Origin: an uncultured Chloroflexia bacterium
GTDB taxonomy: Bacteria; Chloroflexota; Limnocylindria; Limnocylindrales; CSP1-4
Reading direction: 5' to 3'
DNA: 64,000 bases
Assembly: GCA_963734535.1 (NCBI GenBank)
Contig: CAVTHS010000007.1
Span: forward strand, 32,001-96,000
Below are positions 18,827 to 56,209 of this stretch, one piece after another. A program made the translations under genes and the position numbers. Below the pieces are notes generated by a model. It did not search any database. It was not told the origin of the DNA and was given only the letters and a program-made list of their open reading frames with translations. Every line of letters starts with the position of its first letter. Within the stretch, counting starts at the first letter, position 1.

Positions 18827-19456
18827 TTGGGTGACGCCGTGGTCGCCCCAGCTGACGCCGCGGACGTCCGGTCGCCGGTCCGCCTGCGACGGCCGTCTGC
18901 CCCCGATCCCGTGCGCGTCGTGGCGTACAGCTGGCTGATGGCCCTCGCGGCCATCGGCCTGCTCAACCTGCTCCACGCGGACCTCCACGAGCATCACGAC
19001 CTCCCCCCGCTCGTTCACTGGCTGCGGGACGCGGCCCTCGCGGTACCCCTCGCCGCGATTGCCGTCCTGGGAGCGGCGTTCCTCGTCCGGGCGCGCACCT
19101 TTCGCCCGCGTGGCGGAGGCGTCTCGTCGATCCCCACGCGTCTCGCCTGGGCGGTCTTCGCCTCCACCTTCTTCGCGATCCTCAGCATCCCCGGGATCCA
19201 GCTCCATGGGCTGTTGTTCGGGGCCGAGGAGGAGTCCGTGGGCTGGCTCGCGGACGCGTTCAAGGACGGAGGCATCACGTTGGCGATCTCCCTCGTCGCG
19301 CTCGTGCCAGCCGCGTTGATCACGGGGCCGCCCTGGCGAGCTGTCCGTGCCGACTTTGGACCTGACCAGGCGCCCGGAGCGACGCTCGCAGCGTCGGCCG
19401 GGTCTTCCGCATTTCTCGCAACCGCGGGATCCACCTACGCCGGAGGCGATCGATGA
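18827..19456 (+). CDS. His-rich hypothetical membrane protein
   Basis: About 4 TM segments with LLHADLHEHHDLPPLVHW and QLHG. Its stop overlaps (ATGA) the next gene. Start uncertain (18827, 18911 or 18938). Confidence 0.65.
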   Translation: MGDAVVAPADAADVRSPVRLRRPSAPDPVRVVAYSWLMALAAIGLLNLLHADLHEHHDLPPLVHWLRDAALAVPLAAIAVLGAAFLVRARTFRPRGGGVSSIPTRLAWAVFASTFFAILSIPGIQLHGLLFGAEEESVGWLADAFKDGGITLAISLVALVPAALITGPPWRAVRADFGPDQAPGATLAASAGSSAFLATAGSTYAGGDR

Positions 19457-19524
19457 GCACCCAGGACAACCGCGCCTCCGTGGCAGGCCAGCAACGTTCC
19501 ACCAGCAGTGAGGAGAGCCAGGTA

Positions 19525-22500
19525 ATGGGTCATTCGCGATTCGGCCGCCCGCGGAGGGCGCTCCGCAGGCTGGGATCCCTGCTCGCGGCCGGCATGCTGG
19601 TCGGCTCGCAGCTCCTGGTGCCGGTGGCCCAGGCCGCCCCGATCAATGTCGCTCCTGCAGCGGCCGCGGTCCCGGCCGCCCCGACCAGCACGATCACGCT
19701 CGCTGTCAAGAGCGCGCGCACCGAGCCCCGGGCGTTCGGCGGGGCCGGCGTGACGGTTGGCACGCCCGTCACCTCGTACAAGTGGATGATCAACGAGGAC
19801 AACACGGGCGACACGACCACGCGCAACGCGAACCCCGGGTCGGCCTGTTCCGCGTGGGTCGACGCGCCCGGCGGGACGCCCAACAGCGCCTACCCGGATT
19901 CCTGCCACTGGACCTCGATCTCCGGCCTGCGGAGCTCCGCCCCGGTCGCGGCCCAGGGCGATGAGACGACCCTCAGCGGCACGATCGGCATCTCCAACCT
20001 GGCGCCCGGCCGCTATCTCATCTCGGTCCTGGCCGATGGCTACAAGCTCGACGGGACCCCGTTCACCGTCCCGATGGAAGCGCCCGGCCTCGTCGAGGTG
20101 CCGCTTCAGCCCGTCCCCCTGCCGACCGCCACGATCAAGGCGCAGATCTTCGCCGACGTGACGTCGACCAACGGACAGTACGACCCGGGCGAGGACGGCC
20201 TGCCCGGGTTCGCCGGCTTCATCACCGACTACATCGGCCAGGTCACGACCGACGTCTTCGGCAACCCGCTGTGCACCAAGTACCAGTTCAACGACCTGAA
20301 CAGCAACGGGGTACAGGACCCGGGCGAGGAAATCACCCTCACCGGTGCCCCCGACTACTCCCCGATCGTCACCCACCTCGGCGGCAAGTGCCTGTCGGGT
20401 GACATCAACATGGACGGCGTCGTCAACGGGACGGACGTCGGGCTCTACAGCGATCCCCAGCTCGATCCCGGCGTGCTGACGATCCCGAACCTCGGGCCCA
20501 ACCGCTACGCACTCTCCGCCGTTCCCCCGACCGGCGCCAGCTGGATCCAGACGACCACGCTCGAGGGCAACCACGACTGGGACGCCTGGGTGATGGAGGG
20601 CTCGACCGGCCTCGACACGGAGTTCGTGGTCGCCGGCGAGCCGTTCCCGGCCGAGATCTTCGGCTACGTGCCGGGCCCCACGATGAACAGGTTCGCGCCC
20701 GGCGGGCAGGGCACCATCAAGGGCGTCGTCGACGCCATGAAGGTCTTCGTCCCGACCACGGGCGGCGCCTGCCTCCCCGGCACCATCTGGGGCGGCCTCT
20801 GCGGCGGGAAGGTCGACAAGCCGATCGACCAGCCGTGGATCGCCCTCAGCGACCTCAACAACGGCGACGCCGCGGTGTGGCTGGGTCGTGGCAACGCCGA
20901 CGGCACGTTCACCATCCCGAACGTCCCCAACGGCAGCTACACGATCACCTACTGGGACGACCCCCAGAACTACATCCTGGACCTGCTCAACGTCAGCATC
21001 GTCAACGGCGAGACCGTCGATATGGGCGTCCTGCCGCTGACGGGCTGGTTCACCAAGTACGACGGCTTTGTCTTCGACGACGCGAACCGCAACGGCGTCC
21101 GCGACGCCGGCGAGCATGGCGTCCCGAACTTCACCCTGACGCTGCGCAAGCGTGAGAACTCGCTGATGGACCGGGGCGCGACCCTGGTCACCACCAACGC
21201 CAACGGCTACTACGTCATGGAGAACGCCTACCCGCTCACGGAGTGGCTGGTCCTCGAGGCGTACGACGACCGCTACTACACGACCGGCGTCACCTACCAG
21301 GCCGACAATCAGCCGGCGCCGACCACGGTCCTTGGCGCGGGCGTCGACGTCAGCGTCCTGCCGATCATCGGCCTCTCCGGCACGCTCGACTGGGGCGTCC
21401 ACGCCTACGACGCGACCGGGACCAACGGCGTCGACCCGCAGAACGGCGGCATCGTCGGCTCCGTCAGCTACGACACCACCCGCAACGAGGTGAATCCGCA
21501 GTACGCGGCCGCGGAGGACTGGCAGCCGGGCGTCTCCGGCCTGACCGTGAACCTCTACGCGCCGGTTGACTGCCCGGTCGACCCGACGACGGGCACGACC
21601 ACCGTGCCGTGCGATGCCAACGGCGACTATGCGCTGGCGGCGGATGGTTCGTATGCCCAGGGCAAGCTCCTGAACACGTATGTCACCGAGACGTGGGACC
21701 GGCCGACCGACTGCATCGCCCGCGGCGTCGATGGCGCGCCCCTCCAGAACCCGGCGGACCAGCAGGTCCTCCCGGTGGGCTCAGGCAAGGGTTGCCTCGA
21801 GGGCCCGCTGATGGGCGTCCAGTTCGGGCCATATCCCACGGACCAGGGCACCCCGGACGCCAACTTCGGCGCCGCGGTCGACGGCAACTACGGCTTCGGC
21901 GACGGCTGCTTCGACGGCGTCCTCGATGCCACCGACCCGTCCGCCCCGACCTGCAAGGACGCGACCACGGGCACCGACGTCCCGTTCACCGCGCTCCCCG
22001 CGGCCGACTACCTCGTCCACGTCGATCTTCCGAGCGTGCACGACAACAACGGCACCCCCGTCTACAAGGTCACCCGGGAAGAGGACATCAACATCGCGAC
22101 CGGCGACAGCTATGTGCCGCAGGTCCCGCCGCCCGCCTGCGTCGGCGCGCTCCACCAGGTGGATGTCGCCGGGGCCGGCACCGACAACTACCCGGCCACG
22201 ACCATTGTCGATCCGTCCGGCCTCGGCGCCGCCACGGTCAGCGTTGCGGCTTCGACTCCCGACCGACAACCCGACCTTCGTCGACATCGGCGGCACGCCC
22301 TATGAGGGCCAGGCCAAGCCGCTGTGCGACACGAAGCTCGTGACGCTCCAGAACGGCAAGTCGGTCGTGCCGATGTTCAACGTCTTCACGGACGTGCCGC
22401 TCCCGAGCCGGTTCTTCGCCCTCAACAACGACGACCTCACCTTCTCCACCGATCCGAAGTCGCTGCTCTACGGCGAGAAGGCCGGCATCCCGTTCAGCCC

Positions 22501-25500
22501 GGTCGGCATCTACGACTTCGCCAACCGCCTGGTTACCACCTCCGAGACCGACTACAACGGCCTCTTCGACGTGCTCCTGCCGTCGACGGACCGGATCAGC
22601 TGCCCGACGCCGTCGGGCGTGTGCGGGAACATCTACCGCTTCGTCGGCAACGACCCGGGCGTCCCGGGCCGCCTGAACCTCAACTACAACCCGCAGTACC
22701 GCACGATCGCGGCCGAGTTCGAGGCCTGGCCGGGCATCATCATCCCGGCCGACACGGCGCCGACGCAGGTCGGCGTGAATGTCCAGGTCCCCGGCTCGCA
22801 GACGTTCACGGCGGTCTCCTGCCCGGTCAATGACCCGGCGTCCGCAGCCACGACACCCGAGCTGTACGCGGTTTCGAAGCCGTACGCCAGCGTGACCGAT
22901 GGCGTCGCCGCGCGATCGATCACGATCGACGGACAGGGCTTCGGCGCAAGCCCCGGCCAGGTCACCCTCGGCGGCGACTCCGCTGGCCACCACCTCGTGG
23001 AGCCCCACCCAGATCGCCCTGACAATTCCCGACCACCGCGACCGGCGGGCCGCAGCAGCTCAAGGTCACCGCGGCCAACGGCCGGAGCACCGTCAACGGG
23101 CTCACGTTCCACGTCATCAAGACCAGCGGACGCGGCGGGCCAGTACAACCCGGCCATCTTCGAGGTGGGCCCCGGCAAGACGTATGCGCCCGCCGAGACC
23201 CTCCCCGCGACGGCCGACCACGCCATCCAGCGTGCGCTTGATGCAGCGGCCCTCTTCATCGGCCAGTCCAACCCCAACGCCAACAGGGGCGCCCTGGTGG
23301 TGGTCTACCCGAACAACCCCAGCGCCAATCCGCGCCAGAACCCGCGCGGCGCGTACTACGAGAACCTGATCATTGCGGGCAAGGTCAAGCTGCAGGGCGT
23401 CGGCCCGGGCAGCCCCACCGGCTCCGTGCGCGGCGCGATCATCGACGGCGGCGCGTTCGCCGGCGACAGCCCGGTGGCGACCGACTGGTACACGAAGATC
23501 ACCACCCTGGCCTGGGCCGGGAACCAGACGATCTATGACGGCGCGGTGATCTCGCTCTTCCTGCCGAGCACCGGACGCAACGCCTTCCCGACGTCGTACA
23601 GCGCCACCACGGCGCCGTCGATCGACGGCTTCGACCTCCGCGGCGGCGATCAGCAGGGCTTCCCCGGCAACATCAACGCCATCGGCGGCGGACCAACGGG
23701 GCTGCCCGGCGGCCTCATCACCCAGGGCGGCGCGGTCTTCGCCAACGCCTACGCCCGCAACCTGCAGATCACCAACAACGTGGTCCAGAACAACGGCGGC
23801 GCCTACGGCACCATCCGCATCGGGACGCCGGACCTGCCGGCCCCCGACACCAACAATCACAACGAGGGCGTCCGGATCCTCAACAACCGGGTCATCGCCA
23901 ACGCCGGGACGAACCTGGCGGGCGGGATCGGCATCTTCGCCGGCGCCGACAACTACGAGGTCGCAGCCAACAATATCTGCGGCAACTTCTCGGCCGAGTA
24001 CGGCGGCGGCCTGTCCGTCTACGGCCTCCAGCGCAACACGGGCACGGCGGTCGTCGCCGGCCGCAACTCCATCCACGACAACCGGATCTACTACAACCAG
24101 TCGTACGACGAGGCGGGCGGAATCATGATCGCCGGCCAGCTGCCGGCCGATCCCTCGATCCTTTCGCCGGGATCCGGCCCAGTCGACATCTACGCCAACC
24201 TGATCCAGTCCAACATGGCCAACGACGACGGCGGCGGGATCCGGTTCCTGATGGCCGGCAACTTCCCGATGAACGTCTACAACAACATGATCGTGAACAA
24301 CGTGTCGACCCACGAAGGCGGCGGGATCGCCATCGACGACGCGCCGAACGTTCGGGTCTACGACAACACGTTCATGAAGAACGTCACGACCGCCACGGCC
24401 GTGACCAGCGACGGCCTGCCGGCTCCCGCCGGGCTGTCCACCGGGCAGAACAGCGCCCTGCTCCAGGCAACGCTGCCGGCCGGCTCCCCGACCTTCAGCA
24501 AGCCGCTCCTGTTCAACAACATCTTCTGGGACAACCGGGCGGGCACGCGTTCCGGCGCCACCGTGACCGGCATCGGGGCGGCTGGCGACGCCACGCCAAT
24601 CAACACCTGGGACATGGGTGTCCCCGGCACCAGCAGCCTGCTCTCGCCCACCTACTCGATCCTCCAGGCGACGACCGGGACCGACGTGACCGGGACGAAC
24701 CTCCCGGCCGGCACGTTCAACAAGGTCGGCGTCGATCCGATCGTCGTCTCCGCCGGGAATACGGCGCTGACGTTCGCCCCGTGGCGGACGAACCCCAACT
24801 TCGTCGGCGCGATCCTCGTCGCGGCCGACCTCCCGCCGAACCTGCAGGGTGACTACCACCTGGCGGCCGGCTCGCCGGCCATCAATGCCGGTGCAGCCTC
24901 CAAGGCCGTGCCCGCCCACCAGCAGCCGCCAGCGACGCTTGCTGCACCCTCGACCGACATCGACGGCCAGGCCCGCCCGTCCGGGGGTGGCTTCGACATC
25001 GGCGCCGACGAGCTCGCGGCGGTCGCCGCCGCCAATGCCAGCGTGGCACCGACGTCACTCGCGTTCGGCAGCGTCACCGTCGGCGCGACCAGCGCGGCCC
25101 AGGCCCTGACCCTGAGCAACACGGGCAGCGCGACGCTGTCCGGCATCACCGTGGCCGTCACGGCTCCCTACTCGCGGCCGGCCGGAGCTCCGGGGGGTAC
25201 CTGCGGTACGACCCTGGCCGCCGGAGGCACCTGCACCATCAACGTGGTGTTCAGCCCGACGACCGCGGTCTCGACCCCCGGGACTGCGACCATCACTGCC
25301 AGCGTGCCGGTCACCGGCTCACCGGTGGCGTTGACGGGTACCGGCGTGGCGGCCCCCTCGCTGCCATCGCTGGGCATCCTCGACAACTTCAACCGCGGGA
25401 ACGCCAACACGCTCGGAGGCAGCTGGTACCAGGGGACGCTTTTCGGTGCGGCCTCGATCCGGGTAAACGCCAACCAGGCGTTCGCCATCCTGCCCGGCCA

Positions 25501-25942
25501 GGCGAACCGAACCACCACGTATGGCGCCAAGCAGGGGGCGGCGTTCACGTTCGCCACCGCGCCCGCGACCGGGGCGAGCCTGTTCCTGAAGGTGGCCAAC
25601 GGGGCCGGGTCGAACGCCAACCCGGCCAGCTACATCCGGGTCCAGTACCAGACCACCGGCGGCGGCCAGGTCCTGGTCCAGACCACCACCAACGGCAACA
25701 ACCTTCTCCCCACGTTCACCACGATCGGAACGCTCTCGTCGGGAGCGTTCGCAACGGGCGACCGACTGACCGCAGTGGCCAACGCCGACGGGTCCGTCGA
25801 CGTCTGGAAGACGACCGCGGCGAACGTGACCACCTACGTCGGCCACACGTCGACGTCGACCTTCACGGGTACGGGCCGGATCGGCATCCAGCTCCCGATG
25901 AACGCCCGGATCGACGACTTCCGCGGAGCGACGGTGCCATGA
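19525..25942 (+). CDS. Giant secreted protein, copy 1 (~2,140 aa): SdrD-B/Cna-like Ig repeats, IPT/TIG, right-handed beta-helix, choice-of-anchor-Q-like motif, ASH-like Ig and C-terminal domain; stitched across indels
   Basis: Signal peptide ending PVAQA; DxNxNG Ca-loop motifs; NN/GGGI beta-helix repeats; DYHL..SPAINAG..DIDGQARP..DIGADE; PTSLAFGSV...LSNTG. One frameshift near 22257 and three compensating ones at about 22975-23135. An in-frame upstream ATG exists at 19453. Confidence 0.82.
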
Positions 25943-25995
25943 GTCGCTGGCGTCACCAAACCACCCGCCCAATCCTCGCCCAGGGAGAGAACGTG

Positions 25996-27357
25996 ATGAG
26001 CGACCACAGTAGGTTGCTGCTCAGCCGGCGTCAGCTGCTGAAGTACGGCGGCGTCACCGCCGTCGCCGCCGGGGTCGCGGGCATCGGCCCGCGGCTGGTG
26101 GAAACCATCCTCAAGCCGGGCCGCGCCCTCGCGGCGGACCAGGAGCCCAACCTCAAGCTCGTCGGGACGGACGGCTGGATCTCCATGCCGCCCGGCCCCG
26201 ACATCAACTCCGCGGCGTACGGCAAGGTCCACCCGGACAGCTACGCACCCCCGAACCGCACCGACTACATATTCGGGTTCGCGAACGGGACCGGCATCTC
26301 CAACGCGGACCTGTACCAGCTCAAGAACAAGGCGCAGCATTCGGCCCCGCTCTTCTGGGCGAAGCAGGGCGACGACTTCCGCGTCCAGCTCACCAACGTC
26401 GGCCTGGCACAGCGCCCGGACCTCTTCGACGCCCACACGCTGCACTGGCACGGCTTCAAGAACGTCATCCCGTTCTTCGACGGCGAGCCAACCGGCTCGG
26501 TGTCGGTCCCGCAAGGCCAGACGTTCACGTACGTCTACAAGTCCCATGACCCCGGCACGTACATGTTCCACTGCCACGTGGAAGACGTGGAGCACGTGCA
26601 CATGGGGATGACAGGCCTCGTCTTCGTGCGGCCGGCCCTGGACGGCAACACGTCCTTCTACGCCAGCGGCAAGTACGCCTACAACGACGGCTCGACCGGC
26701 TTCGACCGCGAGTACGCCATGTTCCTCAGCGAGGTCTGGGCGGACGCCCACTGGGCGGATGCCCACATCCAGCTCCCCGAATGGAGCGACTATCACGCGG
26801 ACTTCAGCCTTCTCAACGGGCGGGCCTATCCGGACACCCTGGAGCCGAACGGCGCGATCTTCTCCGACTTGGGGCTGCCCAACGCGACCTATCCCTTCGA
26901 AGTCGCGCGAGATGCCAGCTACGACCTGACGCCTCCGAGCGGGCCGCGCGGCGCGGACCTGGGCAACCAGCCGATGTCGTCCCTGGTGACCTGCGTGGCG
27001 GGCGAGCGAGTCCTCCTGCGCTTCGCCAACCTCGGCTTCAAGGAAGCCGCGATGACGCTCACCGGCATCAAGCTGCACGTGGTGGGGCGCGACGCGACCC
27101 TCCTCCGCGGCTTCGATTCCACCGATTCGAGCTACGCGACGAACACCGTCGCCCTGGGCGCCGGCGAGAGCTTCGACGCGATCTTCACGGCGCCGGCTCA
27201 TTCCGGCGGATCCGGCCCCGACACGTACGTGCTCTACAACCGGACATACATCCGGGCCGACAACCTCGCCGGCGGCGGCGGCCAGCGCACCGAGGTGCGC
27301 GTCTATCCGTCGGGCGCCCTCCAGCCCCAGAAATACCCCAACGACTGGGGCATCTGA
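25996..27357 (+). CDS. Two-domain multicopper-oxidase-like subunit A1 (Tat-exported; T1 site plus half of the trinuclear ligands)
   Basis: SRRQLLK Tat motif; HTLHWHG and FHCHVEDVEHVHMGM in domain 1; domain 2 motifs are degenerate (AAMTLTG, YVLYNR). Confidence 0.88.
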   Translation: MSDHSRLLLSRRQLLKYGGVTAVAAGVAGIGPRLVETILKPGRALAADQEPNLKLVGTDGWISMPPGPDINSAAYGKVHPDSYAPPNRTDYIFGFANGTGISNADLYQLKNKAQHSAPLFWAKQGDDFRVQLTNVGLAQRPDLFDAHTLHWHGFKNVIPFFDGEPTGSVSVPQGQTFTYVYKSHDPGTYMFHCHVEDVEHVHMGMTGLVFVRPALDGNTSFYASGKYAYNDGSTGFDREYAMFLSEVWADAHWADAHIQLPEWSDYHADFSLLNGRAYPDTLEPNGAIFSDLGLPNATYPFEVARDASYDLTPPSGPRGADLGNQPMSSLVTCVAGERVLLRFANLGFKEAAMTLTGIKLHVVGRDATLLRGFDSTDSSYATNTVALGAGESFDAIFTAPAHSGGSGPDTYVLYNRTYIRADNLAGGGGQRTEVRVYPSGALQPQKYPNDWGI

Positions 27358-27389
27358 TGAGACCAGCAGTGATGAGTGGAGTGACCACG

Positions 27390-28796: not shown

Positions 28797-28807
28797 GAGG
28801 TAGGGGA

Positions 28808-31726: not shown

Positions 31727-31730
31727 CCCG

Positions 31731-32312: not shown

Positions 32313-32325
32313 CAGGAGACCATCG

Positions 32326-44784: not shown

Positions 44785-44972
44785 TCGGTGCCGAGCCAAG
44801 CGGGGGCCGTCACGGCCCCCAGGCCGCTCCACCCGAGCCAGCGCAGGCGCCGGGAGCGTCGACGCGGCGCTCCCCGGGCAGGCCTGACCGCAGTGAGACC
44901 AGGCAGCGCGGCGCCAGGCGCGACCGGCCACCAGCCCGGCAGTCGTCGGCAGGCCCGCTTCAGGAGAACACG

Positions 44973-46404
44973 ATGAGCAAACCACCCTTCTCCCGGAAGG
45001 TCTCCCGGCGGCAGTTCCTCAAGGTCGGCGGCACTGCGCTCGCCGCCGCGGCGGCGCGAGCCTCGGCTCCGCACTGGGCCGGCAAGGTGCTGCCAGCCGT
45101 CCTCGGCCGCCGAGGCCGCCGGCGCCGACGTCGCCCGCGCCGACCATCTACAAGCACCTGATCGGGTCCGACGGCTGGATCTCCATCCCATGGGGACCAT
45201 CACGAACGAGCTGGGAGCTGTCGTCGCCCCCGATGCGCTCGCGCCCGCGGGGCGAACCACCTACGTGTTCGGCTTCCGCGACGTGACGGTGCTGGACGCC
45301 CCCGGCCCCACGCCGGGCACGACGACCGAGCCCCGGATCCTGGCGCAGAAGGGCCACGTCCAGCACTCGGCGCCGCTGATCTTCTTCGACGAGAACGACG
45401 CCATCCAGATCACGCTGAGCAACCTGGGCCTGGCCGTGCGGCCCGACCTGACCGACCCGCACACCATCCACTGGCACGGCTTCCGCAACGCCCTGCCGAT
45501 CTTCGACGGCGTGCCGGAGATGTCGATCTCGGTGGCGCCCGGGAGCGACTTCCCGTACTACTATCACCCGACCGATCCCGGCACCTACATGTACCACTGC
45601 CACAACGAGGACGTCGAGCACGTGCAGATGGGCATGGACGGCATCGTCTTCGTGCGGCCGGCGCAGAACAAGACCGGCAACGGCGCCGGGGCTCCGGTCG
45701 CCCGCTACAACGGCGGGGCCGCCGGCGCCGCTGGGCTACGTCTACAACGACGGCGTGGCGCTCGGCGACCCGCGCTCGACGGCCTACGACCGCGAGTTCG
45801 CCATCTTCCTCAACGAGTTCTGGGCGCAGTCGCACTACGACGACGCCCACATCCAGGTGAGCGACTGGAGCGACTTCCACGCCGACTTCTACCTGATGAA
45901 CGGCCGCTCCTATCCCGACACGCTCGCGCCCAACGGCGGCGGCACCGACCTGACGCACCGGCGACCTGATCGCGCCGGCCGGCCGCCCGGACCTGGAGTC
46001 CCAGCCGATCTCGTCGCTGATCCAGTGCAACGCCGGCGACCGGGTGCTGCTGCGCTTCGTCAACCTGGGCTACACCCAGCCGGCCATGAAGCTGACCGGC
46101 ATCCCCATGCACGTGGTCGGCAAGGATGCCACGCCGCTGCGCGGCATCGGCACCGGCGGGCTGCGCAACGGCGCCGACACGAGCTACATCACCGACACGA
46201 TCTACCTGGGCGCGGGCGAGAGCTACGACGCGATCTTCACCGCGCCGCCCAAGACCGGCGCCGGCTACGACACCTACCTGCTCTTCAACAACGCGCTCGG
46301 CGCGCTCAACACAGCCGGGCGGCGCCGGGCTGGGCGGGCAGATGACCGAAGTGCGCGTTTACGCCGCCGGCACCCTGCCGGCCCAGACGGCGCCCAACAC
46401 GTGA
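44973..46404 (+). CDS. Multicopper-oxidase-like subunit A2 (Tat); frameshifted
   Basis: SRRQFLK Tat motif, HTIHWHG, YHCHNEDVEHVQMGM; domain 2 degenerate (PAMKLTG, YLLFNN). Confidence 0.8.
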
Positions 46405-46417
46405 TCCATGAAAGGAG

Positions 46418-47779
46418 ATGACGGACATGCGCACCACTTCGTACGCAAGATGGGTTCGACTATCGGTCGGCGCTGGCGCGTGCTGCGCCATCCTGGTCGC
46501 TCGAGCTGCCGGCAGCGCGCCGCCAGTGGCCGCCGCGGCGACGGCCGTCTTCGGGCATCCTGTGCACCACCAGCAGCAGCCCGAACGCGAGCTTCTCGCT
46601 GACGGCGAGCGCCGACTACATCAGCATGCCGGACGGCAACTCGATCTACACCTGGAGCTACGGCCCCAGCGGCGGCGCTTTCCAGTTCCCCGGGCCGGTG
46701 CTGTGCGTCAACCAGGGCGACACGGTGACGGTGGTGCTGAACAACACGCCTGCCGGAAGCCACCTCGATCATGTTCCTGGGCATCGACAACGTCCAGGCC
46801 AACGGCGCCCCGGCCCAGCCGGAGTTCAGCGGCAGCGACGCCTGACCTCGCTGACCAACAGCGCCGCGGCGACCGGCGGCAGCGTCACCTACAGCTTCGT
46901 GGCCAGCAACCCGGGCACCTACCTGTACGAGAGCGGCACGGACGTCGGCAAGCAGGTGCAGATGGGCCTGTACGGCGCGCTGGTCGTGCGCCCGGCCGGC
47001 CACCCCGATTGGGCCTACAGCAACGACGGCCAGGCCTTCGGCCAGTTCGACCCGACCACCGAGTTCGTCATGCTGCTCTCCGAGATCGACCCGAACCTGC
47101 ACTCGGCGGTCGAGCTGGGGCAGCCCTACGACGTGACCACCCTGCACCCGCGCTACTGGCTGATCAACGGGCGCTCCTTCCCGGACACCATCGCGCCGAA
47201 CAACGCCGCCTGGCTGCCCAACCAGCCCTACAGCTCGCTGTTCCACATCAAGGTGACTGACCCGCCGGATCCGACCCACGGCGGCGTCCATGCACCCGGC
47301 GCTGATCCGCTACCTGGACGCCGGCTCGCGCAACCACCCGTTCCACCCGCACGGGCAGAACGGGCGGGTGATCGCGCGCGATGCCACCCCGCTGATCGAC
47401 GCGGCCGGCAACGACCTCTCCTACGAGACGTTCGCCTTCACCATCGGCTCGGGCCAGACCTGGGACCAGACCTACCACTACGACAACCAGGAGCACTTCG
47501 ACGCGACCACCAACCCGATCCCGGTGACGATGCCGCAACTGCAGAACCTGACCTTCAAGGACAACGCGACCTACTACAGCGGCAGCCCCTACCTGGGGCA
47601 GAAGGGCCAGCTGCCGGTCGGCACCACGTCGTACAACGAGTGCGGCGAGTACTACATGGTCATGCACAGCCACGCGCTGTACGAGGTGGCCAACTACGAC
47701 ACCGGCTTCGGCGGCATGTTGACCCTGGAACGGATCGACCCACTGACGCCGGCGCCCGGCACCACGTGCACGCCAGTAG
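46418..47779 (+). CDS. Multicopper-oxidase-like subunit B2; frameshifted
   Basis: PGPVLCVNQGD, YLYESG, QVQMGLYG; NHPFHPHG and MHSH in domain 2; AAGGAG RBS. End inferred from a TAG just before the next RBS. Confidence 0.78.
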
Positions 47780-47788
47780 GAGACGACG

Positions 47789-50700
47789 ATGAGAACGCCC
47801 ATCCGACTACCGGGCCGCACACGGCTCCTCTCGCCGGTCATGGCGGCGGCGCTGGTCGCCGCCTGCTCGGCCGCTGGCGCAGCCGCGCCGGTGGCCGCTA
47901 GCCCGGCCCGCCTGGCTGCGGCGCCGGCACCGGCGGCCGCCGCGCCGCGGTCCCGTCACCGGGACGACCTGCTCGCCGGCCTGCGACCTCTACGCCACGA
48001 CCGGCACCGCTCACGCCTGCCGGACGGCGACCACGGCGCCGATCTGGGGCTACTCGCTGCCAGCACGCCCGGGTCGGCCAGCCTTGCCCGGCCCGCTCCT
48101 GATTGTCAACCAGGGCGATCCGGTTGCGATCACCCTGCACAACGTCGACCTGCCGAGCGCGACGTCGTTGATGATCGCGGGCCAGCCGGGCGCGCCGGAC
48201 ACGACCGGCGTCACCGCCGGCAACAGCAAGACCTACACCTTCGCGGCGGGGGTCCTGCAAGCCCGGCACCTACCTCTACGAAGCCGGGCTGACCGCCGAC
48301 GGGCCGCGCCAGGTGGCAATGGGCCTCTACGGCGCCCTGATCGTGCGCCCGACCGGCGCACCGCTCCAGGCGTACGCCGATCCCGAACACGACCTTCGCC
48401 GACGAGGCGGTGCTGGTGCTCAGCGAGGTCGACCCGGCCTTCAACGCCGCCCCGGCCACGCTTCGACATGACCGCGTTCGCCCCGAAGTACTGGCTGATC
48501 AACGGCAAGGGCTACCCCAACACCGATTCGATCGCCACGGCGGCGGGCAACACGGTCCTGCTGCGCTACGTCAACGCCGGCCTCGCAGCACCACTCGATG
48601 GGCCTGCTTGGCCTGCACCAGACGATCATCGCGACCGATGGCACAGCCGGCCACCAACCAGTCCAGGGTGGTGGCCCAGACCGTCCCGACCGGCGGCACG
48701 CTGGATACCATCGTCACCATGCCGGCCAGCTGCCCCGACGGGCACGCAGTACGCGGTGTTCGAGGCCGCGATGCACATGGACAACAACGGCGCCGCGACC
48801 GGCGGCGTCGATCAACTTCGGCGGCATGCTGACGTTCCTGACGGTCTGCGCGGGGACCACGCTCCACCGGCCGGCCCGGTCACCAGCGCGGTCAGCCTCG
48901 TCGCCCAACCCGAGCAACGGCTCGGCGGCAGTCGCCCTCACGCGCCGACGCACCTCGACCGGCGCACCTGACCGCGGCCGAGTACTTCGTCGACACGCTC
49001 GGCACGAGCGGCAGCTGGCTGCGCCGATCACCGGCTCGCTGACCAGCGTCAGCGTCACGATCCCAGTGTCCGGCGCGACGCGCTCGCCGTGCGCGGATCT
49101 GACGACGCTTTCCAGCGGCAACCACACCTTCTACGTCCATGGCCAGGACGCGAATGGCTGGGGCGCCGTTGCCTCGGCCGTGCTCAACCTGGACAAGGCC
49201 GGCCCGGCGATCAGCAACATGAGCCTGACGCCGAGCGCCGACAACGGCACCGTCGATGTCGTGCTGCAGGCGACTGCGAGCGACGTCGCGACGCGGCAAC
49301 CAGAACGTGACGGCGGCCGAGTACATTCATCGACGGCGGCACGCCAGCACGTGCGACGCTTCACGGTGGCGCCCGGCGACGACCGTGAGCCTGAACGCCA
49401 CGATCCTCGCCGCAACGGTGAACGGCCCTGAGCCGAGGGCAACCACACGGTTGCCGTCCGCGCTCAGGATGCCCTGGGCAACTGGGGTGCGCTTTGGCAC
49501 CACCACCCTGAAGGTTGACAAGACCGGGCCGGGAACCAGCGCCGTCACCGCGACCCCCAACCCGAACAACGGCACGCTCGGCGTGCAGATCGGCACGCGG
49601 CGGCGCGTTCTACGTGCGCATCGACGCGACGGTCAGCCGACCCGGTCTCACCGGTCTCGGTGGCGTCAACTCGAACATCGCCGCGGCTGAGTACTTCTTC
49701 GATTGCCCTGGCGGGACGTGTCCCGCCAACGGCACCGGCGGGGCGATGATCCCCACCGACGGCTCGTACAACAGCCCCAGCGAGGCGGCCTACGCGGCCG
49801 TCGACATGATCCACATCGCCTCCCTGTCCGTCGGCACCCACACGATCTACGTCCACGGCAAGGACGCGGCCGGCAACTGGGGCGCGACCAGCGACCATCT
49901 CGTTCCTGATCGACAAGACCCCGCCGACCTTCACGGGCATCTCGCTCGCGCCGAACCCGACCCTGGGCGCGCCACGCGTCACGCTGACGGTGAACGGAGC
50001 GGTCGACACGGGCGGCGCCGGCGTTGGTGGCGGCGAGTACTGGATCAATCCACCGACGACCACGACCCCGGCTGCGGGCAGCGGCACGCAATTCAGCGGC
50101 CTGACGGCGAGCATCCCGGTGGGCTCGCTCGCGACCGGCACGTACACCGTCAGCGCCCGGATCCGCGACGCTGCCGGCAACTGGAGCACCGGCACGGGCG
50201 GCATCCGTACCGCGACGCTTACCGTCCTTCCCGACACGATCTTCTCGAACGGCTTCGACACCGGCTTCGCCCCGTGGGGCTGGACCAGCCGGTCGACGAC
50301 CACGACGGCACGCCTCAATGCCACGGCGGCGGCCGCCCTGGTCGGCGCTCGGGGCCTCCAGGCGCAGGGCAACAGCGGCAACTACGTCCAGTTCAACTTC
50401 GGGACCGTCGCCCAACCGACGACGGCGACCTACGACGCGCGCTTCTACTTCAACCCACACAACAACGCGTCGACCGGGCAGGACATCCTGGCGGCCGCGA
50501 CGTCGAACGCCTTCACCACCCAGCTGTTCCACGTGCGCTACCGGCGCAGCGGCACCCAGCCGCAGGTGCAGGTACAGGTGGGCGCCACCGCCAACGCTGC
50601 GTGGGTGAACATCACCAACAACGCCAGCAACCGCATCGAGGTCGTCTGGCAGTCCGGCGCGAGCCTCCAGCTGACCGTCAACGGCACGCTGTCCCAGACC

Positions 50701-50829
50701 CTGACCGCCGGCACGGGCTCCGTGTCCGCCGTTCGCCTGGGCTCTGTGACTTCCGGCGGCAGCAACACCCTCATGTACTTCGACGCCTTCGCCTCCAAGC
50801 GATCGGTGTCGCCGCTCATCGGGCCGTAG
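47789..50829 (+). CDS. Multicopper-oxidase-like subunit C2 with Ig-like repeats and shared C-terminal domain; frameshifted
   Basis: PGPLLIVNQGD, YLYEAG, QVAMGLYG, YWLING, HTIYVHGKDAAGNWG; ends YFDAFASKRSVSPLIGP. Confidence 0.78.
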
Positions 50830-50848
50830 TCCCAAGCACCTCGCACGC

Positions 50849-50884
50849 GGGGCCGGCCGGCCACCCGACACGCCGGCCGGCCCC
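50849..50884 (+). terminator. Stem-loop after C2
   Basis: 13-bp inverted repeat ggggccggccggc / gccggccggcccc; no U-tract. Confidence 0.45.
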
Positions 50885-50941
50885 GCCACCCCGTTCACTC
50901 AACGCAATCGCCTTCCACGGCACCAACCGGAGGAGCTTTCC

Positions 50942-51430
50942 ATGGCCGAGTCGGCCGTCCTTCCAGCACTGCGGGGGCGCTTCGGAAGCGTCCCGGGCGC
51001 GATCGTCCCCTTCGCCGGCGCGCTTGCGCTGCTCGCCGCGGTGATCGCCCTGGGCCTCACCCTGCGCGCTCCCGCCGCACCCGCCGGGACACCGATCCCG
51101 CCGAATCCCGCCGTCGAGACCAAGTGGGGGGTCAGGGTCAGCCAGGTGGCGGTAACCGCGGACGGTGGTCTCGTCGACTTCCGCTTCATCGTCCTCGACC
51201 CGGACAAGGCGTCCGAGATGCTCTCGAACGTCGACAACCTGCCCGTGCTCCGCGTGGACGGCTCGGGCGTCGTCGTCAACTCCACCGCACAGATGGGCGG
51301 CCACCCGACCCTCCGGCCCGGTCAGACCTACTTCCTCCTCTACCGCGACGCGGGTGGCGCGATCAAGAGCGGCACCTCCCTCAGCGTCCTGTTCGGCGAT
51401 CTCGCGATCGACCACGTGATCGCCCGCTGA
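50942..51430 (+). CDS. Single-TM anchored hypothetical protein D2
   Basis: WGVRVSQVAVTADGGLVDFRFIVLDPDKA...YFLLYRDAGG; paralog of 31731..32312; GGAGGAG RBS. Confidence 0.8.
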   Translation: MAESAVLPALRGRFGSVPGAIVPFAGALALLAAVIALGLTLRAPAAPAGTPIPPNPAVETKWGVRVSQVAVTADGGLVDFRFIVLDPDKASEMLSNVDNLPVLRVDGSGVVVNSTAQMGGHPTLRPGQTYFLLYRDAGGAIKSGTSLSVLFGDLAIDHVIAR

Positions 51431-51442
51431 CGGTGTGATCCG

Positions 51443-53371
51443 ATGACGCAGCGGCCAGCCGCGAGCTCGATCCGGGTGCGCCGCGCCCTGGCGGCGCTCG
51501 TGGCGCTGCCGATCTTCCTGTGGCTCGCGGCCGGTACCGCATCCGCGCACGCGATCCTCGAGTCCGTCGACCCGGCCGATGGGTCGACCCTCTCGAGCGC
51601 CCCCCCGATCGTGCGGCTGGTGTTCTCCGAGCCCGTGGACCCGTCCCTCGCGACGATCGGGCTGCTGGACGCGGCCGGCCGCGCGGTCTCCGGGGTCGTG
51701 GTCGGCGCCGATCCGTCCGACCCGGCTGCGCTCGACGTCTCGCTGCCGGCCCTCTCGCCGAGCGCCTACAGGCTCGCCTGGCGGGTGGTCGACGAGCAGG
51801 ACTTCCATGTCACGACAGGAACGGTCGTCTTCGGCATCGGGGCGCCCGCGCCCGCGCCGGCCGCCGAGCAGGTCGCGGGCGCGAACCTCCCCGAGGTGGG
51901 CCTGCGCTGGCTGGCCCTCGCCCTGCTCGCGGCCGCCTGCGGCGGCCTCCTGCTGCTGGTCGTCGTCCTCCGGCTGCCAGCCCGCTTCGACGGACCGGCG
52001 CTCGCGCTCCGGCGGCGGCTCGTGCGGGTCGCGACCGGCGCGAGCGGCGCGGCGATCCTCGCCAACGGCAGCCTGTTCCTCCTCCAGGCGAACGGGGCGG
52101 GCGGAACGGGCATCGACCCGGCAGCACTCCTGGGGACCACGTTCGGGACGGCCTGGGCGATCGAGGAGGCCGTGCTCACGGTCCTCTGCGTCGTCCTGGT
52201 CCGTGCCATGCGCCGCAGTCCGGCCGGCGCGCCGAGCCTCCGCGTCGCCCTCGTCGGCGGCCTGCTGTTCGGTCTCGCCGGAGTCCAGGCCCTGACCGGC
52301 CACGTCACCACGGGCCCGGCCCAGGAGACGCCGATCCGCTGGATCGCGCTGACCGTCCACCTCGTCGCCATGCTGGCGTGGGTCGGCGGGCTCGCCGCCC
52401 TGGCGATCGGCGTCGGGCCGCTGCTCCGGGGACCACGCGCCAACGTCGGGCTCGCCCGGGCAGTGCTGGGACGATTCTGGCTGATTGCGGCGCCCGCCCT
52501 CGCCGCCCTCGCCGTCACGGGGCTGTACCTCGGGGGGCAGCTCGTCGCATCGGCGGACGCGCTCCTCCTCACGGCCTATGGCCAGGCGCTCCTCGTCAAG
52601 ACCGGCCTCGCGCTCGTTGCCGTGATGCTCGGTGCGCTCAATGCGGCGGCGCTGCATCCGGGCCTCTTCGCCCGGGTGCGCCGGGTCGCACCCTTCGCGC
52701 TCCGACTCGTCCCATCGCGGGCCCGGCTTCGCGCCGTCGTCGCCGTGGAGGCCAGCGCCGCGCTCGCGGTCGTCCTGGCGGCGGCGTTCATGAGCGCCAG
52801 CCCACCCGCCCGCGGGCCCCGGTTCGATCCGGTGCCGGCTGTCGTCACCCAGGCGCCGGTCGCAGCCCGGGCCGACGATCTCCTGGTGACCCTGGCGATC
52901 CGGCCCGATCGCCCCGGACCGAACTTCGCCGACATCGGCGTGCTCGACACCCGCCGGCCGGCCCCGGCGCCGATCGACACCGTCAGCGTACGCCTGATTC
53001 CACCGACCGGCACCGGCGTGACCGCGCTCCAGGCGCGCGCAACCGCGCCCGGCCGCTACGAGATCGACAACTTGCCCATCGACCAGGGCGGGGCGTGGCG
53101 CCTGGCGATCGAGATCGGCCGAGCAGGACTGCCGCCGGCCTCGGTCGTGCTTCCCTGGGCCGTCGCGCCGGCGCTCGCCGCGCCCCATCCGGTGCTCGTC
53201 TCCGACGCGCCGCTCGCGCCACTCGCGACCCCGCTGGCGATCGCGCTGGCGGCCCTCTTCGGTGCCCTTGCCATCGCCGTCGTCGCCCGGCGCCGAGGGG
53301 TCCGCCCGGGGCGGACCGTCGCCGCACTCACCGCCAGCCCGCCGGCAGCCCCTTCAGGAAGTGAGATATGA
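51443..53371 (+). CDS. CopC/CopD (YcnJ-like) copper uptake/resistance fusion protein
   Basis: Signal peptide then AHAIL..DP.DG (N-terminal His), FSEPV, WRVV...DFH; CopD region with TGH, HLVAMLAWVGG, YGQALLVK; C-terminal extracellular domain. Confidence 0.9.
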   Translation: MTQRPAASSIRVRRALAALVALPIFLWLAAGTASAHAILESVDPADGSTLSSAPPIVRLVFSEPVDPSLATIGLLDAAGRAVSGVVVGADPSDPAALDVSLPALSPSAYRLAWRVVDEQDFHVTTGTVVFGIGAPAPAPAAEQVAGANLPEVGLRWLALALLAAACGGLLLLVVVLRLPARFDGPALALRRRLVRVATGASGAAILANGSLFLLQANGAGGTGIDPAALLGTTFGTAWAIEEAVLTVLCVVLVRAMRRSPAGAPSLRVALVGGLLFGLAGVQALTGHVTTGPAQETPIRWIALTVHLVAMLAWVGGLAALAIGVGPLLRGPRANVGLARAVLGRFWLIAAPALAALAVTGLYLGGQLVASADALLLTAYGQALLVKTGLALVAVMLGALNAAALHPGLFARVRRVAPFALRLVPSRARLRAVVAVEASAALAVVLAAAFMSASPPARGPRFDPVPAVVTQAPVAARADDLLVTLAIRPDRPGPNFADIGVLDTRRPAPAPIDTVSVRLIPPTGTGVTALQARATAPGRYEIDNLPIDQGGAWRLAIEIGRAGLPPASVVLPWAVAPALAAPHPVLVSDAPLAPLATPLAIALAALFGALAIAVVARRRGVRPGRTVAALTASPPAAPSGSEI

Positions 53372-55671
53372 ACGCCCCGCGTCGCCACAGTCGCCTGCTT
53401 CTCGTGCTCGCCATCTCCGCGCTGCTCAACGGGGCCGTCGGCGCGCCCACGATCGCCGCAGCACCGACTGCCGCGATCGATGCGGCGCTCGCGGCAACGC
53501 TGCGGACCGCCGCTCCCGGCGCGCTGATCCCGGTCATCGTGCGGCTGCGCGACCAGGTCGACATCCGCGCGATCGGCGGCGCCGGCCGTTCCGCCCGCCT
53601 CGCGGCCGTGGTCACCGCCCTCCAGCAGCGGGCCGCAGCGACCCAGGCCGGGCTCCTGGCTCTCCTGGCCGCGCGGCGGGTCGGGGGGCTTGCGGCCTCG
53701 GTGACGCCCCTGTGGATCATCAACGGCGTCGCCGTGCACCTGCGCCCCTTGGCCATCGCGGAGATTGCCGCCCGGCCAGAGGTCGCTTCGATCGCCCTCG
53801 ACCAGGTGGTCACCGCGCCGGCTGCCCCGAGCGCAGCCTCCTCGACCCCGGTCGAACCGAACGTGAGCCTGATCAACGCGCCGTCCGTGTGGAGCCTCGG
53901 GTTCGGCGGCCAGGGCGTGGTCATCGCCAGCATGGACACGGGTGTCGACGCGACCCATCCGGATCTCGCCGCCGAGTACCGCGGCGGGACCGACAGCTGG
54001 TACGACCCGTACGGCCAGCACCCGACCACCCCGATTGACTTCTCGGGCCACGGGACGTGGACGATGGGGCTGATGGTGGGGGGCACCGGCGGGGGAAGCG
54101 CCATCGGCGTCGCCCCCGGCGCGAAGTGGATCGCCGCCAAGATCTTCAACGACGCCGGCAGCGGGACGACCAGCGCGATCCACCTCGCCTACCAGTGGCT
54201 TCTCGACCCGGACCACAACCCGGCGACAGCTGATGCCCCGAACATCGTCAACAACTCGTGGACGCTCTCCAACCCGGGATGCTCGCTCGAGTTCGAGCCC
54301 GACCTCGCGGCGCTCGTGGCCGCCGACATCACGCCGGTGTTCGCGGCCGGCAACTTCGGCCCGACCGCCCCGTCTGATGCGAGCCCGGCCAACAACCCCG
54401 ATGCATTCGCGGTCGGGGCGACGGACAACTCCGACGCGATCGCCAGCTTCAGCAGCCGTGGCCCCACGAGCTGCGGGCGATCGGCGCCGGCCACCTTCCC
54501 GGACGTCGTCGCCCCTGGCGTGGGCGTGCTGACCACGGACCTCTTCGGCCTGTACACCAATGTGGCCGGGACCTCGTTCTCGGCGCCGGCCGTCTCGGGC
54601 GCCATGGCCCTCCTCCTGAGCGCCTTCCCCGCCGCCACGGTGGCCCAGCTCCGCGCCGCGCTCGCCGGCACGGCGGTCGACCTCGGCCCGGCCGGGCCGG
54701 ACGCTACCTTCGGCTCCGGCAGGATCGACGTCCTCGCCGCCTACAACGCCCTCGCGGGCGGGCCCTCGCCCTCCCCGAGCCCGTCGCCGAGCCCGAGCCC
54801 GAGTCGCCGAGCCCCGCCGCCCGTCGCCGAGCCCCAGCCCCTCGCCGTCGCCGAGCCCCGAGCCCGTCGCCGTCGCCGAGCCCCAGCCCGTCGCCGTCGC
54901 CGAGCCCCAGCCCGTCGCCGTCGCCGAGCCCCAGCCCGTCGCCGTCGCCGAGCCCCAGCCCCTCGCCGAGCCCGCCCGAGCCCCAGCCCGTCCCGTCGCC
55001 GAGCCCCAGCCCGCGACCCGTCGCCGAGCCCCAGCCCCTCGCCGAGCCCGAGCCCGTCGCCGACCCCAGCGCCCGCGGTGACCTCGCTCTCGCCGAGCTC
55101 GGGCCCGACCGCGGGCGGCACGACGGTCACGATCAGCGGCAGCGGCTTCAGCACCGCGGCCGGGGCGACCGCGGTCTCGTTCGGCGCGAGCCCCGCCGCG
55201 AGCGTCAGCTGCGGGAGCGTGACGAGCTGCCTCGCCGTCAGCCCGGCCGGCGTCGCCGGGGCGGTCGACGTCCGGGTGACGGTCGGCGGGCAGACGAGCC
55301 CGGTCACCCCGGGCGACCGGTTCAGCTATGTCGCGGCCGCGACCACCGTTCCCGTCGCGGTTCCCGCCCTCACGAGCGGGTACGGCTACTGGGTCACCGT
55401 CACGAGCGCAACGAGCGGGCCGATCAGCGCCGCCTGGACGACCCCCACGTCGGTTCAGGGCACCCTCGCGGTCTACGCCGGCAACCCGTTCGCCGGCCTG
55501 TCGGATCCCGCGCGGCGCAGCCCGCCATCGGGCGCGCTCGCGACGACGTCAGGCAGGCGGCGCTCCTTCAGCGTCACGACGGCCTCCCGGCCGGCCGGCG
55601 TCTACACCCTCTACTTCTACGCCGGCGGCAGCCTGAAGGCGAGCAGCGGCACGGTCACCTACTGGAGGTAG
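53368..55671 (+). CDS. Secreted S8 peptidase 2 with Pro/Ser linker and IPT/TIG domain
   Basis: MDTG, GHGT, FAAGN, GTSFSAP; PAVTSLSPSSGPTAGGTTVTISGSGF (IPT/TIG); paralog of peptidase 1. Confidence 0.88.
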   Translation: MNAPRRHSRLLLVLAISALLNGAVGAPTIAAAPTAAIDAALAATLRTAAPGALIPVIVRLRDQVDIRAIGGAGRSARLAAVVTALQQRAAATQAGLLALLAARRVGGLAASVTPLWIINGVAVHLRPLAIAEIAARPEVASIALDQVVTAPAAPSAASSTPVEPNVSLINAPSVWSLGFGGQGVVIASMDTGVDATHPDLAAEYRGGTDSWYDPYGQHPTTPIDFSGHGTWTMGLMVGGTGGGSAIGVAPGAKWIAAKIFNDAGSGTTSAIHLAYQWLLDPDHNPATADAPNIVNNSWTLSNPGCSLEFEPDLAALVAADITPVFAAGNFGPTAPSDASPANNPDAFAVGATDNSDAIASFSSRGPTSCGRSAPATFPDVVAPGVGVLTTDLFGLYTNVAGTSFSAPAVSGAMALLLSAFPAATVAQLRAALAGTAVDLGPAGPDATFGSGRIDVLAAYNALAGGPSPSPSPSPSPSPSRRAPPPVAEPQPLAVAEPRARRRRRAPARRRRRAPARRRRRAPARRRRRAPAPRRARPSPSPSRRRAPARDPSPSPSPSPSPSPSPTPAPAVTSLSPSSGPTAGGTTVTISGSGFSTAAGATAVSFGASPAASVSCGSVTSCLAVSPAGVAGAVDVRVTVGGQTSPVTPGDRFSYVAAATTVPVAVPALTSGYGYWVTVTSATSGPISAAWTTPTSVQGTLAVYAGNPFAGLSDPARRSPPSGALATTSGRRRSFSVTTASRPAGVYTLYFYAGGSLKASSGTVTYWR
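54763..55068 (+). repeat. Low-complexity repeat encoding a (PS)n linker
   Basis: Recurrent ccgtcgccgagccccagc units; compensating indels make the middle read as Arg-rich. Confidence 0.85.
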
Positions 55672-55774
55672 CAGCCGGCCGGTTCCGCGCCGCGGGACCT
55701 GCCATCCATCCGGGGTAACGAGGCCGCTGCCCGGCGGCCTGGACTCATCGTTCGTCATCGAGGGGGGAAGGACC

Positions 55775-56209
55775 ATGTCCCATCGAAGGGGGCTCGCGGC
55801 GCTGTGCGCCGCCACCATCGTGCTCGCCGCCTGCGGAGGCGGGACGACGGCGCCCTCGCCGCACACCGCCACCGCCACGGTCGGGGAGTTCAAGATCGCG
55901 CTCGACACCGCCAAGCTCTCGGCCGGCCAGGACACCCTGACCGTCAAGAACGACGGCAAGATCACCCACGAGTTCGTGGTCGTGCGCACGGACCTCGCCC
56001 CCGATGCCCTGCCGACCGGCTCGGACGGCGGGGTCGACGAGGAGGCGACCGACGTGGCGCACGTCGACGAGGTCGAGGACATCGCCGCGGGCTCGAGCGG
56101 CTCGCTGACCGTCTCTCTGCCGGCCGGCAAGTACGTCGTCTTCTGCAACCTGCCCGGCCACTACAAGGGCGGCATGCACGCCGCGATCGAGGTCACCGCG
56201 GGCGCCTGA
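55775..56209 (+). CDS. Blue-copper cupredoxin lipoprotein (auracyanin/sulfocyanin-like)
   Basis: LAAC lipobox, HEFVV and FCNLPGHYKGGM type-1 Cu motif. Confidence 0.88.
   Translation: MSHRRGLAALCAATIVLAACGGGTTAPSPHTATATVGEFKIALDTAKLSAGQDTLTVKNDGKITHEFVVVRTDLAPDALPTGSDGGVDEEATDVAHVDEVEDIAAGSSGSLTVSLPAGKYVVFCNLPGHYKGGMHAAIEVTAGA

Follow-up and report, generated by a model that had tools for sequence, protein, structure and literature searches.

What enzyme is encoded by a set of exported copper proteins that occurs twice, in the same gene order, in a 64,000-nucleotide stretch of the genome of an uncultured Chloroflexia bacterium (contig CAVTHS010000007.1, positions 32,001 to 96,000; hereafter the window, with positions counted from its first nucleotide), and why does the second set appear broken? 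Our analysis indicates that the two sets are probably complete operons of one widespread system, each specifying an exported multicopper oxidase that would be built from three two-domain subunits (A, B and C) and carry a composite active site, and that the breaks in the reading frames are very probably sequence errors. The main interest lies in the splitting of the oxidase and in the presence of both of its ancient operon types in one genome.

The window is part of contig C7 of a metagenome bin of 3.2 Mb (14 contigs, 90% complete, 7.1% contamination) and has a G+C content of 70%. Operon 1 (19.45–35.65 kb) and operon 2 (38.1–55.7 kb) lie head to tail on the plus strand. A tblastn search with the operon 1 products against 37.5–56.3 kb gives collinear matches with an overall protein identity of 28–64% (giant protein 33–59%, A 51–61%, B 42–49%, C 28–64%, D 34%, S8 peptidase 56% with an E value of 1.8e-137). 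This search recovers the repeated order giant, A, B, C, D, S8 reported in a preliminary description of the sequence. A NarL-type regulator and kinase pair between the copies on the minus strand (35764–36492 and 36489–37740), a CopC-CopD fusion (CopCD) in copy 2 only (51443–53371, +) and a cupredoxin lipoprotein after copy 2 (55775–56209, +) also lie where that description had placed them, so the earlier map is right. Signal peptides or membrane anchors are seen by eye in all intact products, in agreement with the earlier view that the products are exported.

The three subunits are encoded by overlapping genes on the plus strand of operon 1. A1 (472 residues; 25939–27357) is a two-domain cupredoxin subunit with a Tat export signal (19.5 bits for TIGR01409, whose cut-off is 16.7). 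B1 (about 480 residues; 27354–28796) is a two-domain cupredoxin-fold subunit, and C1 (about 977 residues; 28793–31726) has two such domains, then Big_13-like Ig repeats and, at the C-terminus, a module of about 220 residues. Profile-profile alignment shows that A, B and C are homologous across both domains (match probability 100). Specifically, domain 1 of A1 carries a type-1 copper (T1) site (H166, C212, H219 and M222/M224) and four histidines of a trinuclear site (H169, H171, H211 and H213), laid out as H166-x-x-H169-x-H171 and H211-C212-H213. B1 has no ligands in domain 1, and its domain 2 carries H344 and H346 (HPH) together with H447 and H449 (HNH). Across 139 sequences of both operon types (described below), H166, H169, H171, M209, H211, C212, H213, H219, M222, M224 and H276 of A and H346, H447 and H449 of B are invariant, and H344 of B is kept in at least 90%. 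In 68 sequences of C, only six positions are at least 95% conserved, and none of them is His, Cys or Met.

The two halves of the ligand set exclude one another along the alignment. The ligand columns of A are occupied in B by V, V, P, E, S, G, Q and L; the columns of the four histidines of B are occupied by T373, T375, Y433 and R435 in A and by G, L, N or a gap in C; and the T1 site has no counterpart in B or C. The eight trinuclear-site histidines are thus not found in one polypeptide, with A having only the domain-1 motifs, B only the domain-2 motifs and C none. Domain 1 of A plus domain 2 of B would supply all eight histidines and one T1 site, and no other pairing would do so. The best reading of the sequences and models is that one two-domain multicopper oxidase is split among A, B and C, which complement one another and are not separate enzymes. 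The exported copper-oxidase apparatus with its own peptidase that had been proposed earlier stands in outline, with A, B and C recast as parts of one oxidase. At the NCBIfam cut-offs, no model matches the giant protein, A, B, C or D. A1 has further conserved His and Cys residues beyond the canonical motifs, namely H271, H276, H134, H98 and C352, among which H271 is kept in at least 90% of the 139 sequences; these residues could form an additional metal or substrate site.

Structural comparison and modelling are consistent with this assignment. By sequence, the top solved relative of domain 1 of A is the two-domain oxidase of Nitrosomonas europaea (3G5W, E value 2.6e-15), with whose motifs the T1 residues of A align. 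The structural model of A (mean predicted local distance difference test score, pLDDT, of 82) matches the folds of 3G5W and 2ZWN across both domains, with a template-modelling (TM) score of 0.69 on the target. A model of the complex, comprising A residues 70–472 and B residues 50–480, was computed in three runs with three controls. It has a median score of 0.86, a mark that 58 of 80 solved complexes attained, as did 2 of 110 mismatched pairs, and the best of the three controls scores 0.00. At least 97% of the contacts are common to the three runs, and the pLDDT of the partner is at least 91. The interface lists residues 169 and 171–181 of A and residues 344, 346–349 and 448–452 of B, so the model places copper-site residues of the two subunits at one predicted interface.

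The nearest known systems are the type-C two-domain oxidases, represented by 3G5W and the metagenomic laccase 2ZWN, which are the top sequence and fold matches of A. Like A, they have two cupredoxin domains with a T1 site and two H-x-H motifs (H-x-x-H-x-H and H-C-H) in domain 1. Known two-domain oxidases carry four H-x-H motifs in one polypeptide and form homotrimers with three active sites, whereas here two genes share the motifs between them and, with none in the third paralogue, an A-B-C unit would have at most one site. The subunits are also 100–150 residues longer than those of type C, and C is about 600 residues longer; A is nevertheless a two-domain chain, with about 400 mature residues against about 300 in type C. 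For one two-domain oxidase, the trinuclear site is stated to lie at a subunit interface (PMC11761707); the "heterotrimer" named in that study comes from one gene, its alpha-alpha-alpha' composition being due to proteolysis.

Two other systems offer partial parallels, and one candidate was rejected. A ring of A, B and C would mimic the layout of ceruloplasmin as it is generally described, a single eukaryotic chain folded into a ring of six cupredoxin domains with one trinuclear site between the first and the last, but would do so with three chains. The Mnx complex of Bacillus, again compared from its general description, is likewise a multicopper oxidase active only as a multi-protein complex from one operon, but MnxG holds all of its own ligands, and its partners MnxE and MnxF are small and unrelated. 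A copper nitrite reductase (NirK) does not fit, because A and B together supply eight histidines and not three, and because the TIGR02376 scores of 29.2 (A), 21.5 (B) and 36.3 (C) bits are far below the cut-off of 296.3. We know of no multicopper oxidase in which the ligands of the O2-reducing cluster are not all carried by one polypeptide. If the assignment is true, a conserved family in which two genes each supply half of the ligands would represent a new construction of an O2-reducing copper site. The preliminary description had recognised no characterised system here, and our search of the full-text literature, with subscription journals and supplements outside it, likewise found no description of the operon or of a heteromeric or split multicopper oxidase.

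The gene order that had been proposed as a module recurs in many other genomes. Searches of 185,579 species genomes returned 125 related stretches with A1 as the query and 391 with the intact A2 of a relative, G004, as the query, and we analysed 80 loci from the former search (type 1) and 79 from the latter (type 2). Type 1 has the order giant-A-B-C-D-S8 and type 2 the order giant-A-B-C-D-CopCD, and each occurs in several phyla. Specifically, type 1 is carried by Chloroflexota (45 loci), Actinomycetota (23), Pseudomonadota (7), Myxococcota (2), Acidobacteriota (1) and two unassigned genomes, and type 2 by Actinomycetota (45), Chloroflexota (33) and Pseudomonadota (1). The order giant-A-B-C-S8 is consistent in all 80 type-1 loci, with all five genes present in order in 57, and a match to the D profile is found in 70. 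Of the 79 type-2 loci, 74 agree with the order giant-A-B-C-D-CopCD and 50 have all six genes. CopCD is a regular member of type 2, following D in 55 of the 79 loci, and lies within the flanks of only 6 of the 80 type-1 loci; an S8 peptidase of the operon 2 kind accompanies 25 type-2 loci. A and B are adjacent in 159 of 159 loci.

The carriers include cultured organisms. Methylobacter tundripaludum SV96 (locus L055) has a clean six-gene operon, and the flanks of the operon in Methylobacter and Micromonospora hold unrelated housekeeping genes that give no hint of a substrate. Since cultured carriers exist (Methylobacter, Micromonospora, Cryobacterium and Kribbella), a true split oxidase would make the proposed route from symmetric trimers to asymmetric six-domain enzymes directly testable. 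Lineages of soil, peat and sediment commonly carry the operon, and its substrate may therefore matter for the turnover of metals or organic matter.

A tree of A places the two operons of the window in two old lineages. The tree contains 140 sequences, which are 138 loci and the A1 and A2 pieces of the window, with duplicate A sequences removed; entry required single matches covering at least 80% of A and of B without stops, which dropped 21 of the 159 loci. It was built by a quick search with Shimodaira–Hasegawa-like approximate likelihood-ratio (SH-aLRT) support and no bootstrap. The type-1 and type-2 sets lie on opposite sides of one branch (SH-aLRT 99), with A1 in type 1, nearest to G004 (84% identity), and the A2 pieces in type 2, nearest to the intact relative L101 (91%). 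In G004, both types are adjacent on one contig, with type 2 inverted relative to the window. Both types also occur in an actinomycete metagenome-assembled genome (MAG), where they are 105 kb apart on the same contig, in a Chloroflexota MAG, where they are on two contigs, and in G012, where they are 1.49 Mb apart. Because the tree has two deep clades and other genomes hold both types, the second copy is not a duplicate from another strain, nor did it arise by recent tandem duplication. Tree and synteny indicate that the window is a co-residence of two ancient operon types and not the product of recent or local duplication. Of the earlier description, the two versions therefore stand as two co-resident operon types, and the tandem copies, understood as a duplication, do not.

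The second operon very probably looks broken only because the assembly is full of one-base errors. A poor-consensus stretch at 36500–49900, with dense frame changes that mostly amount to one extra base, has no long open frame. Within it, 38.1–49.9 kb covers the giant protein 2 gene (38087–44784), placed by tblastn with copy 1 and G004 copy-2 proteins and by the frame path described below, A2 (44961–46404, in four frame pieces), B2 (46410–47800, ends approximate, in pieces) and most of C2 (47800–50829, start approximate), which is broken to about 49.9 kb and has its last 931 bases in a single frame. The copies had been called complete; their order stands, and completeness cannot be read from a stretch without an open frame, nor is copy 1 free of breaks. 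In particular, the giant protein 1 gene, which in G004 is an unbroken frame of 2446 codons, has one base more here that cuts it at about 22260, and it carries a compensated pair of frame errors at 23026/23128. The gene for S8-1 and an open reading frame at 34125–35648 are one gene, cut within a Pro/Ser linker (about 33.7–34.1 kb).

To trace the frames, we used a three-frame Viterbi path on the G+C content of third codon positions (GC3) over 37.9–51.5 kb. It has 62 frame switches (45 of +1 and 17 of +2), of which about five are true gene borders. With a six-frame form of the same path, frame junctions without a nearby stop were counted across the genome. The whole 3.2 Mb has 871 such stop-free junctions, and 35 of them fall in the 13 kb of operon 2, about 10 times the mean density; the 836 outside this stretch (3.19 Mb) show the same +1 bias (590 of +1 against 246 of +2). 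Contigs of relatives about 90% alike, from four metagenome runs that represent these relatives and are uninformative on habitat or depth, have one base fewer at 39814, 40976, 42679 and 46749, which are four predicted +1 sites. Alignment of the DNA to G004 and L101 gives 67 single extra bases in the window against 31, and at about 75% identity this comparison shows the excess of single bases and does not place every indel. The frame pieces of operon 2 have a GC3 of at least 0.9, and the ligand motifs are intact in A2 (HTIHWHG and HCHNEDVEHVQMGM) and in B2 (FHPHG and MHSHA).

Islands of frame changes, about 5–13 kb long and mostly of +1, also occur at 130–135 kb of contig C2, 105–110 kb of contig C10, 165–175 kb of contig C7, and 75–80 and 190–195 kb of contig C11. 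Housekeeping genes are broken in them, including the IGPS/TrpB operon, WhiA, a CofD-like gene, RapZ and TatC. In two of these dense islands, consecutive pieces in different frames match successive parts of single Pfam profiles, namely CofD (1–96, 98–159 and 163–227), TatC (1–41 and 104–165) and the N and C domains of RapZ, and the PALP domain of a TrpB-like gene and WhiA are split as well. The island pattern looks like that of a poorly polished long-read assembly. Because the housekeeping genes of the islands are broken alike, the motifs are kept, the +1 bias is genome-wide, relatives lack the extra bases and GC3 is high, the frame breaks of operon 2 are very probably consensus errors of the assembly and not decay. 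The practical lesson is that apparent gene decay in this window would be an assembly artefact, and gene calls from this genome require frameshift-aware handling.

The remaining gene products suggest how the oxidase might be displayed. The giant secreted protein 1 is one gene (19453–25942, +), as supported by its Pfam and NCBIfam matches, the G004 frame, and the structure model with Foldseek, and consists of SdrD-B/CNA-like sandwiches, a right-handed beta-helix, an Ig-like domain and a lectin-like end. It is highly conserved, its last 937 residues being 28–76% identical in 104 relatives, and its gene spans 1,500 to 2,800 codons, stop to stop, across loci. The giant protein model (mean pLDDT 85) shows the right-handed beta-helix, the Ig-like domain and a lectin-type jelly roll. 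In Foldseek, the C-terminal part matches a GH136 glycosidase, phage tailspikes, and legume-lectin, ERGIC-53 and CBM66 domains, with TM scores of 0.25–0.45 for the helix; because these matches are weak, we assign no enzyme class. Atlas look-ups, which serve as leads only, pointed to beta-helix/NosD-like clusters (below 0.9) for the giant protein and to nameless clusters for D.

D spans the membrane once and has a beta-rich domain of about 130 residues. A profile built from type-2 D domains has its top match in D2 (50750–51430, +, a stop-to-stop frame; 155.5 bits), which is 57% identical to the D2 of G004, and also finds D1 (31680–32312, +; 118.5 bits). A copper-chaperone motif was sought in D, and none is conserved, nor is any His, Cys or Met. 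The subtilase S8-1 (32236–35648, +) has a Pro/Ser linker, Big_13 repeats and an end module of the C1 type, and in relatives the order S8, repeats and module is found within one gene. S8-2 (53368–55671, +), 56% identical to S8-1, has a TIG domain. In the Pro/Ser linker of S8-2, an Arg/Ala-rich stretch with RRRRRAPA repeats (54900–55200), where GC3 favours another frame, is probably a compensated pair of frame errors.

C1, S8-1 and C2 share the end module of about 220 residues (31064–31723, 34986–35645 and 50167–50826), with a mutual identity of 64–68%, which suggests a shared docking target. Because the end module of C2 in G004 is only 32–33% identical to the modules of the window, C2 here seems to carry an end of the copy-1 type. 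In G004, the end modules of the two subtilases (L017:18665–19258 and L097:20585–21178) are 99% identical and face each other beside the inversion point of operon 2.

These features can be assembled into a mechanism. Only A would carry type-1 copper, and only the interface of A domain 1 and B domain 2 would have the full eight-histidine trinuclear site; because of this division of ligands between A and B, the complex would receive electrons at a single site in A, and O2 would be reduced at a single composite site. C, with its Ig repeats and lectin-like module, would form a copper-free third of the ring. The most likely role of the co-transcribed giant beta-helix/lectin-like protein, the membrane-anchored D and the S8 peptidase is to position the complex on the cell surface or a polysaccharide and to mature it there; S8-1 ends in the same module as C. 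The CopCD of type 2 probably serves copper supply. A reduced metal ion and a phenolic polymer are candidates for the electron donor. More tentatively, A, B and C may be obligate partners in a heterotrimeric ring of six domains with a single T1 site and a single trinuclear site made by two genes, held on the giant polysaccharide-binding beta-helix protein. Such a ring would be intermediate between the homotrimeric and the single-chain six-domain oxidases, and the two types would be isoenzymes, the one with CopCD serving when copper is scarce or for another substrate.

How firmly does the split oxidase stand against other functions? Several points weigh against it. All of the support is computational, namely sequence, synteny and models, and the substrate and the roles of the giant protein and the peptidase are inferred. 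A H211, A H213 and B H447 are missing from the listed contact residues of the A+B model, and because homotrimers of the same fold have been solved, the score of that model may reflect likeness to them and not binding of these proteins; C would be placed in the ring by homology and synteny. The computational nature of the support, the possible likeness of the model to solved trimers and the lack of any conserved ligand in C favour the alternative that A, B and C are not one enzyme. In that case A, by itself or in a homotrimer, would act as a blue copper protein or have a partial copper site, and B and C would be non-catalytic cupredoxin-fold binding proteins. That alternative is quite unlikely, because B retains exactly the four histidines, in two H-x-H motifs, that are missing from A, invariant or nearly so in 139 sequences from several phyla, and A and B are never separated in the 159 loci. 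Conservation of these histidines is hard to explain unless a partner supplies the other four, and so counts for a joint site of A and B. Copper detoxification in the manner of copABCD or pcoABCD, in which the oxidase would oxidise Cu(I) to Cu(II) within the envelope while CopCD handled the metal, is also unlikely. In its favour, CopC-CopD is coupled to the oxidase genes in most type-2 loci, the best sub-threshold NCBIfam matches of A and C are to the CopA subfamily, and the cupredoxin that follows in the window weakly resembles CopI and EfeO. The oxidase of cop systems is a single three-domain protein, and methionine-rich stretches are typical of CopA/PcoA. The copABCD and pcoABCDE systems combine a multicopper oxidase gene with CopC and CopD, a combination found here in operon 2 only and with the two fused, and lack the giant protein, D and the peptidase; a giant beta-helix/lectin-like protein and an S8 peptidase are not known to belong to them. 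Also against this reading, CopCD is rare beside type 1, and no score reaches the family cut-off (TIGR01480, 40.4 bits for A and 42.1 for C against 478.95).

The split oxidase in two complete operons also has to be weighed against real loss or misassembly of the second. No sequencing run was found to contain this strain, the best share of the words of 38–48 kb being 0.09; over 2686 residues, the G004-guided matches of operon 2 run into 3 stop codons, of which at least one is upstream of the B2 start; the poor stretch ends exactly at the start of the C-terminal module of C2, an unexplained coincidence; and that module differs from its counterpart in G004 as given above. A truly decaying pseudogene cluster, in which the second oxidase was lost through many real frameshifts, would account for these stops and for the roughly tenfold junction density, and the absence of the extra bases from relatives is equally expected of strain-specific mutation. 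We consider decay very unlikely nonetheless, since equal islands break TatC, RapZ, CofD, the TrpB-type PALP gene and WhiA, genes unlikely to be non-functional. Moreover, the +1 bias is the same genome-wide, GC3 stays high within pieces that retain every copper-ligand motif, the A2 pieces are 91% identical to the intact A of L101, and copy 1 and the kinase between the operons also carry breaks. That the second copy is an artefact in which the versions of one operon from two strains were placed side by side, a concern already raised in the preliminary description, is extremely improbable. The bin has 7.1% contamination, and sequence quality changes abruptly at about 36.5 and 49.9 kb, but the copies share only 28–64% protein identity, fall into two deep clades and differ in gene content by CopCD, and a single contig holds both types in G004 and in the actinomycete MAG, while in G012 they are 1.49 Mb apart.

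Regulatory and accessory genes surround the operons. A NarL-type response regulator with Response_reg and GerE domains (17087–18007, +) lies upstream of operon 1, and many related loci have a homologous regulator before the giant gene, likewise on the plus strand. The response regulator between the operons has the same two domains; its partner histidine kinase, transcribed away from operon 2, is split between two frames, with HisKA_3 in 36682–37740 and HATPase_c in 36489–37052. The CopC-CopD fusion is a copper-handling membrane protein with Pfam CopC and CopD matches. The cupredoxin lipoprotein (SoxE/Cupredoxin_1) has, by eye, an LAAC lipobox and a C-x4-H-x4-M type-1 copper motif, and had no match in the 79 type-2 loci, the only loci searched (tblastn, E value 1e-6). 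The g0 gene (18827–19456, +) encodes a small membrane protein without a family match. It carries a His-rich HADLHEHHD stretch, and only 7 of the 80 type-1 loci, each from a close relative, have it before the giant gene; it may be a lineage-specific metal-binding accessory.

Just upstream of the operon 1 regulator are a third S8 subtilase of 619 residues (15103–16962, −) and a large PAS/GAF hybrid histidine kinase (11364–15071, −). Downstream of the cupredoxin gene, matches to POR, POR_N, PFOR_II and TPP_enzyme_C, parts of a 2-oxoacid:ferredoxin oxidoreductase, extend across overlapping frames at 56291–59814 and represent several genes or further frame errors.

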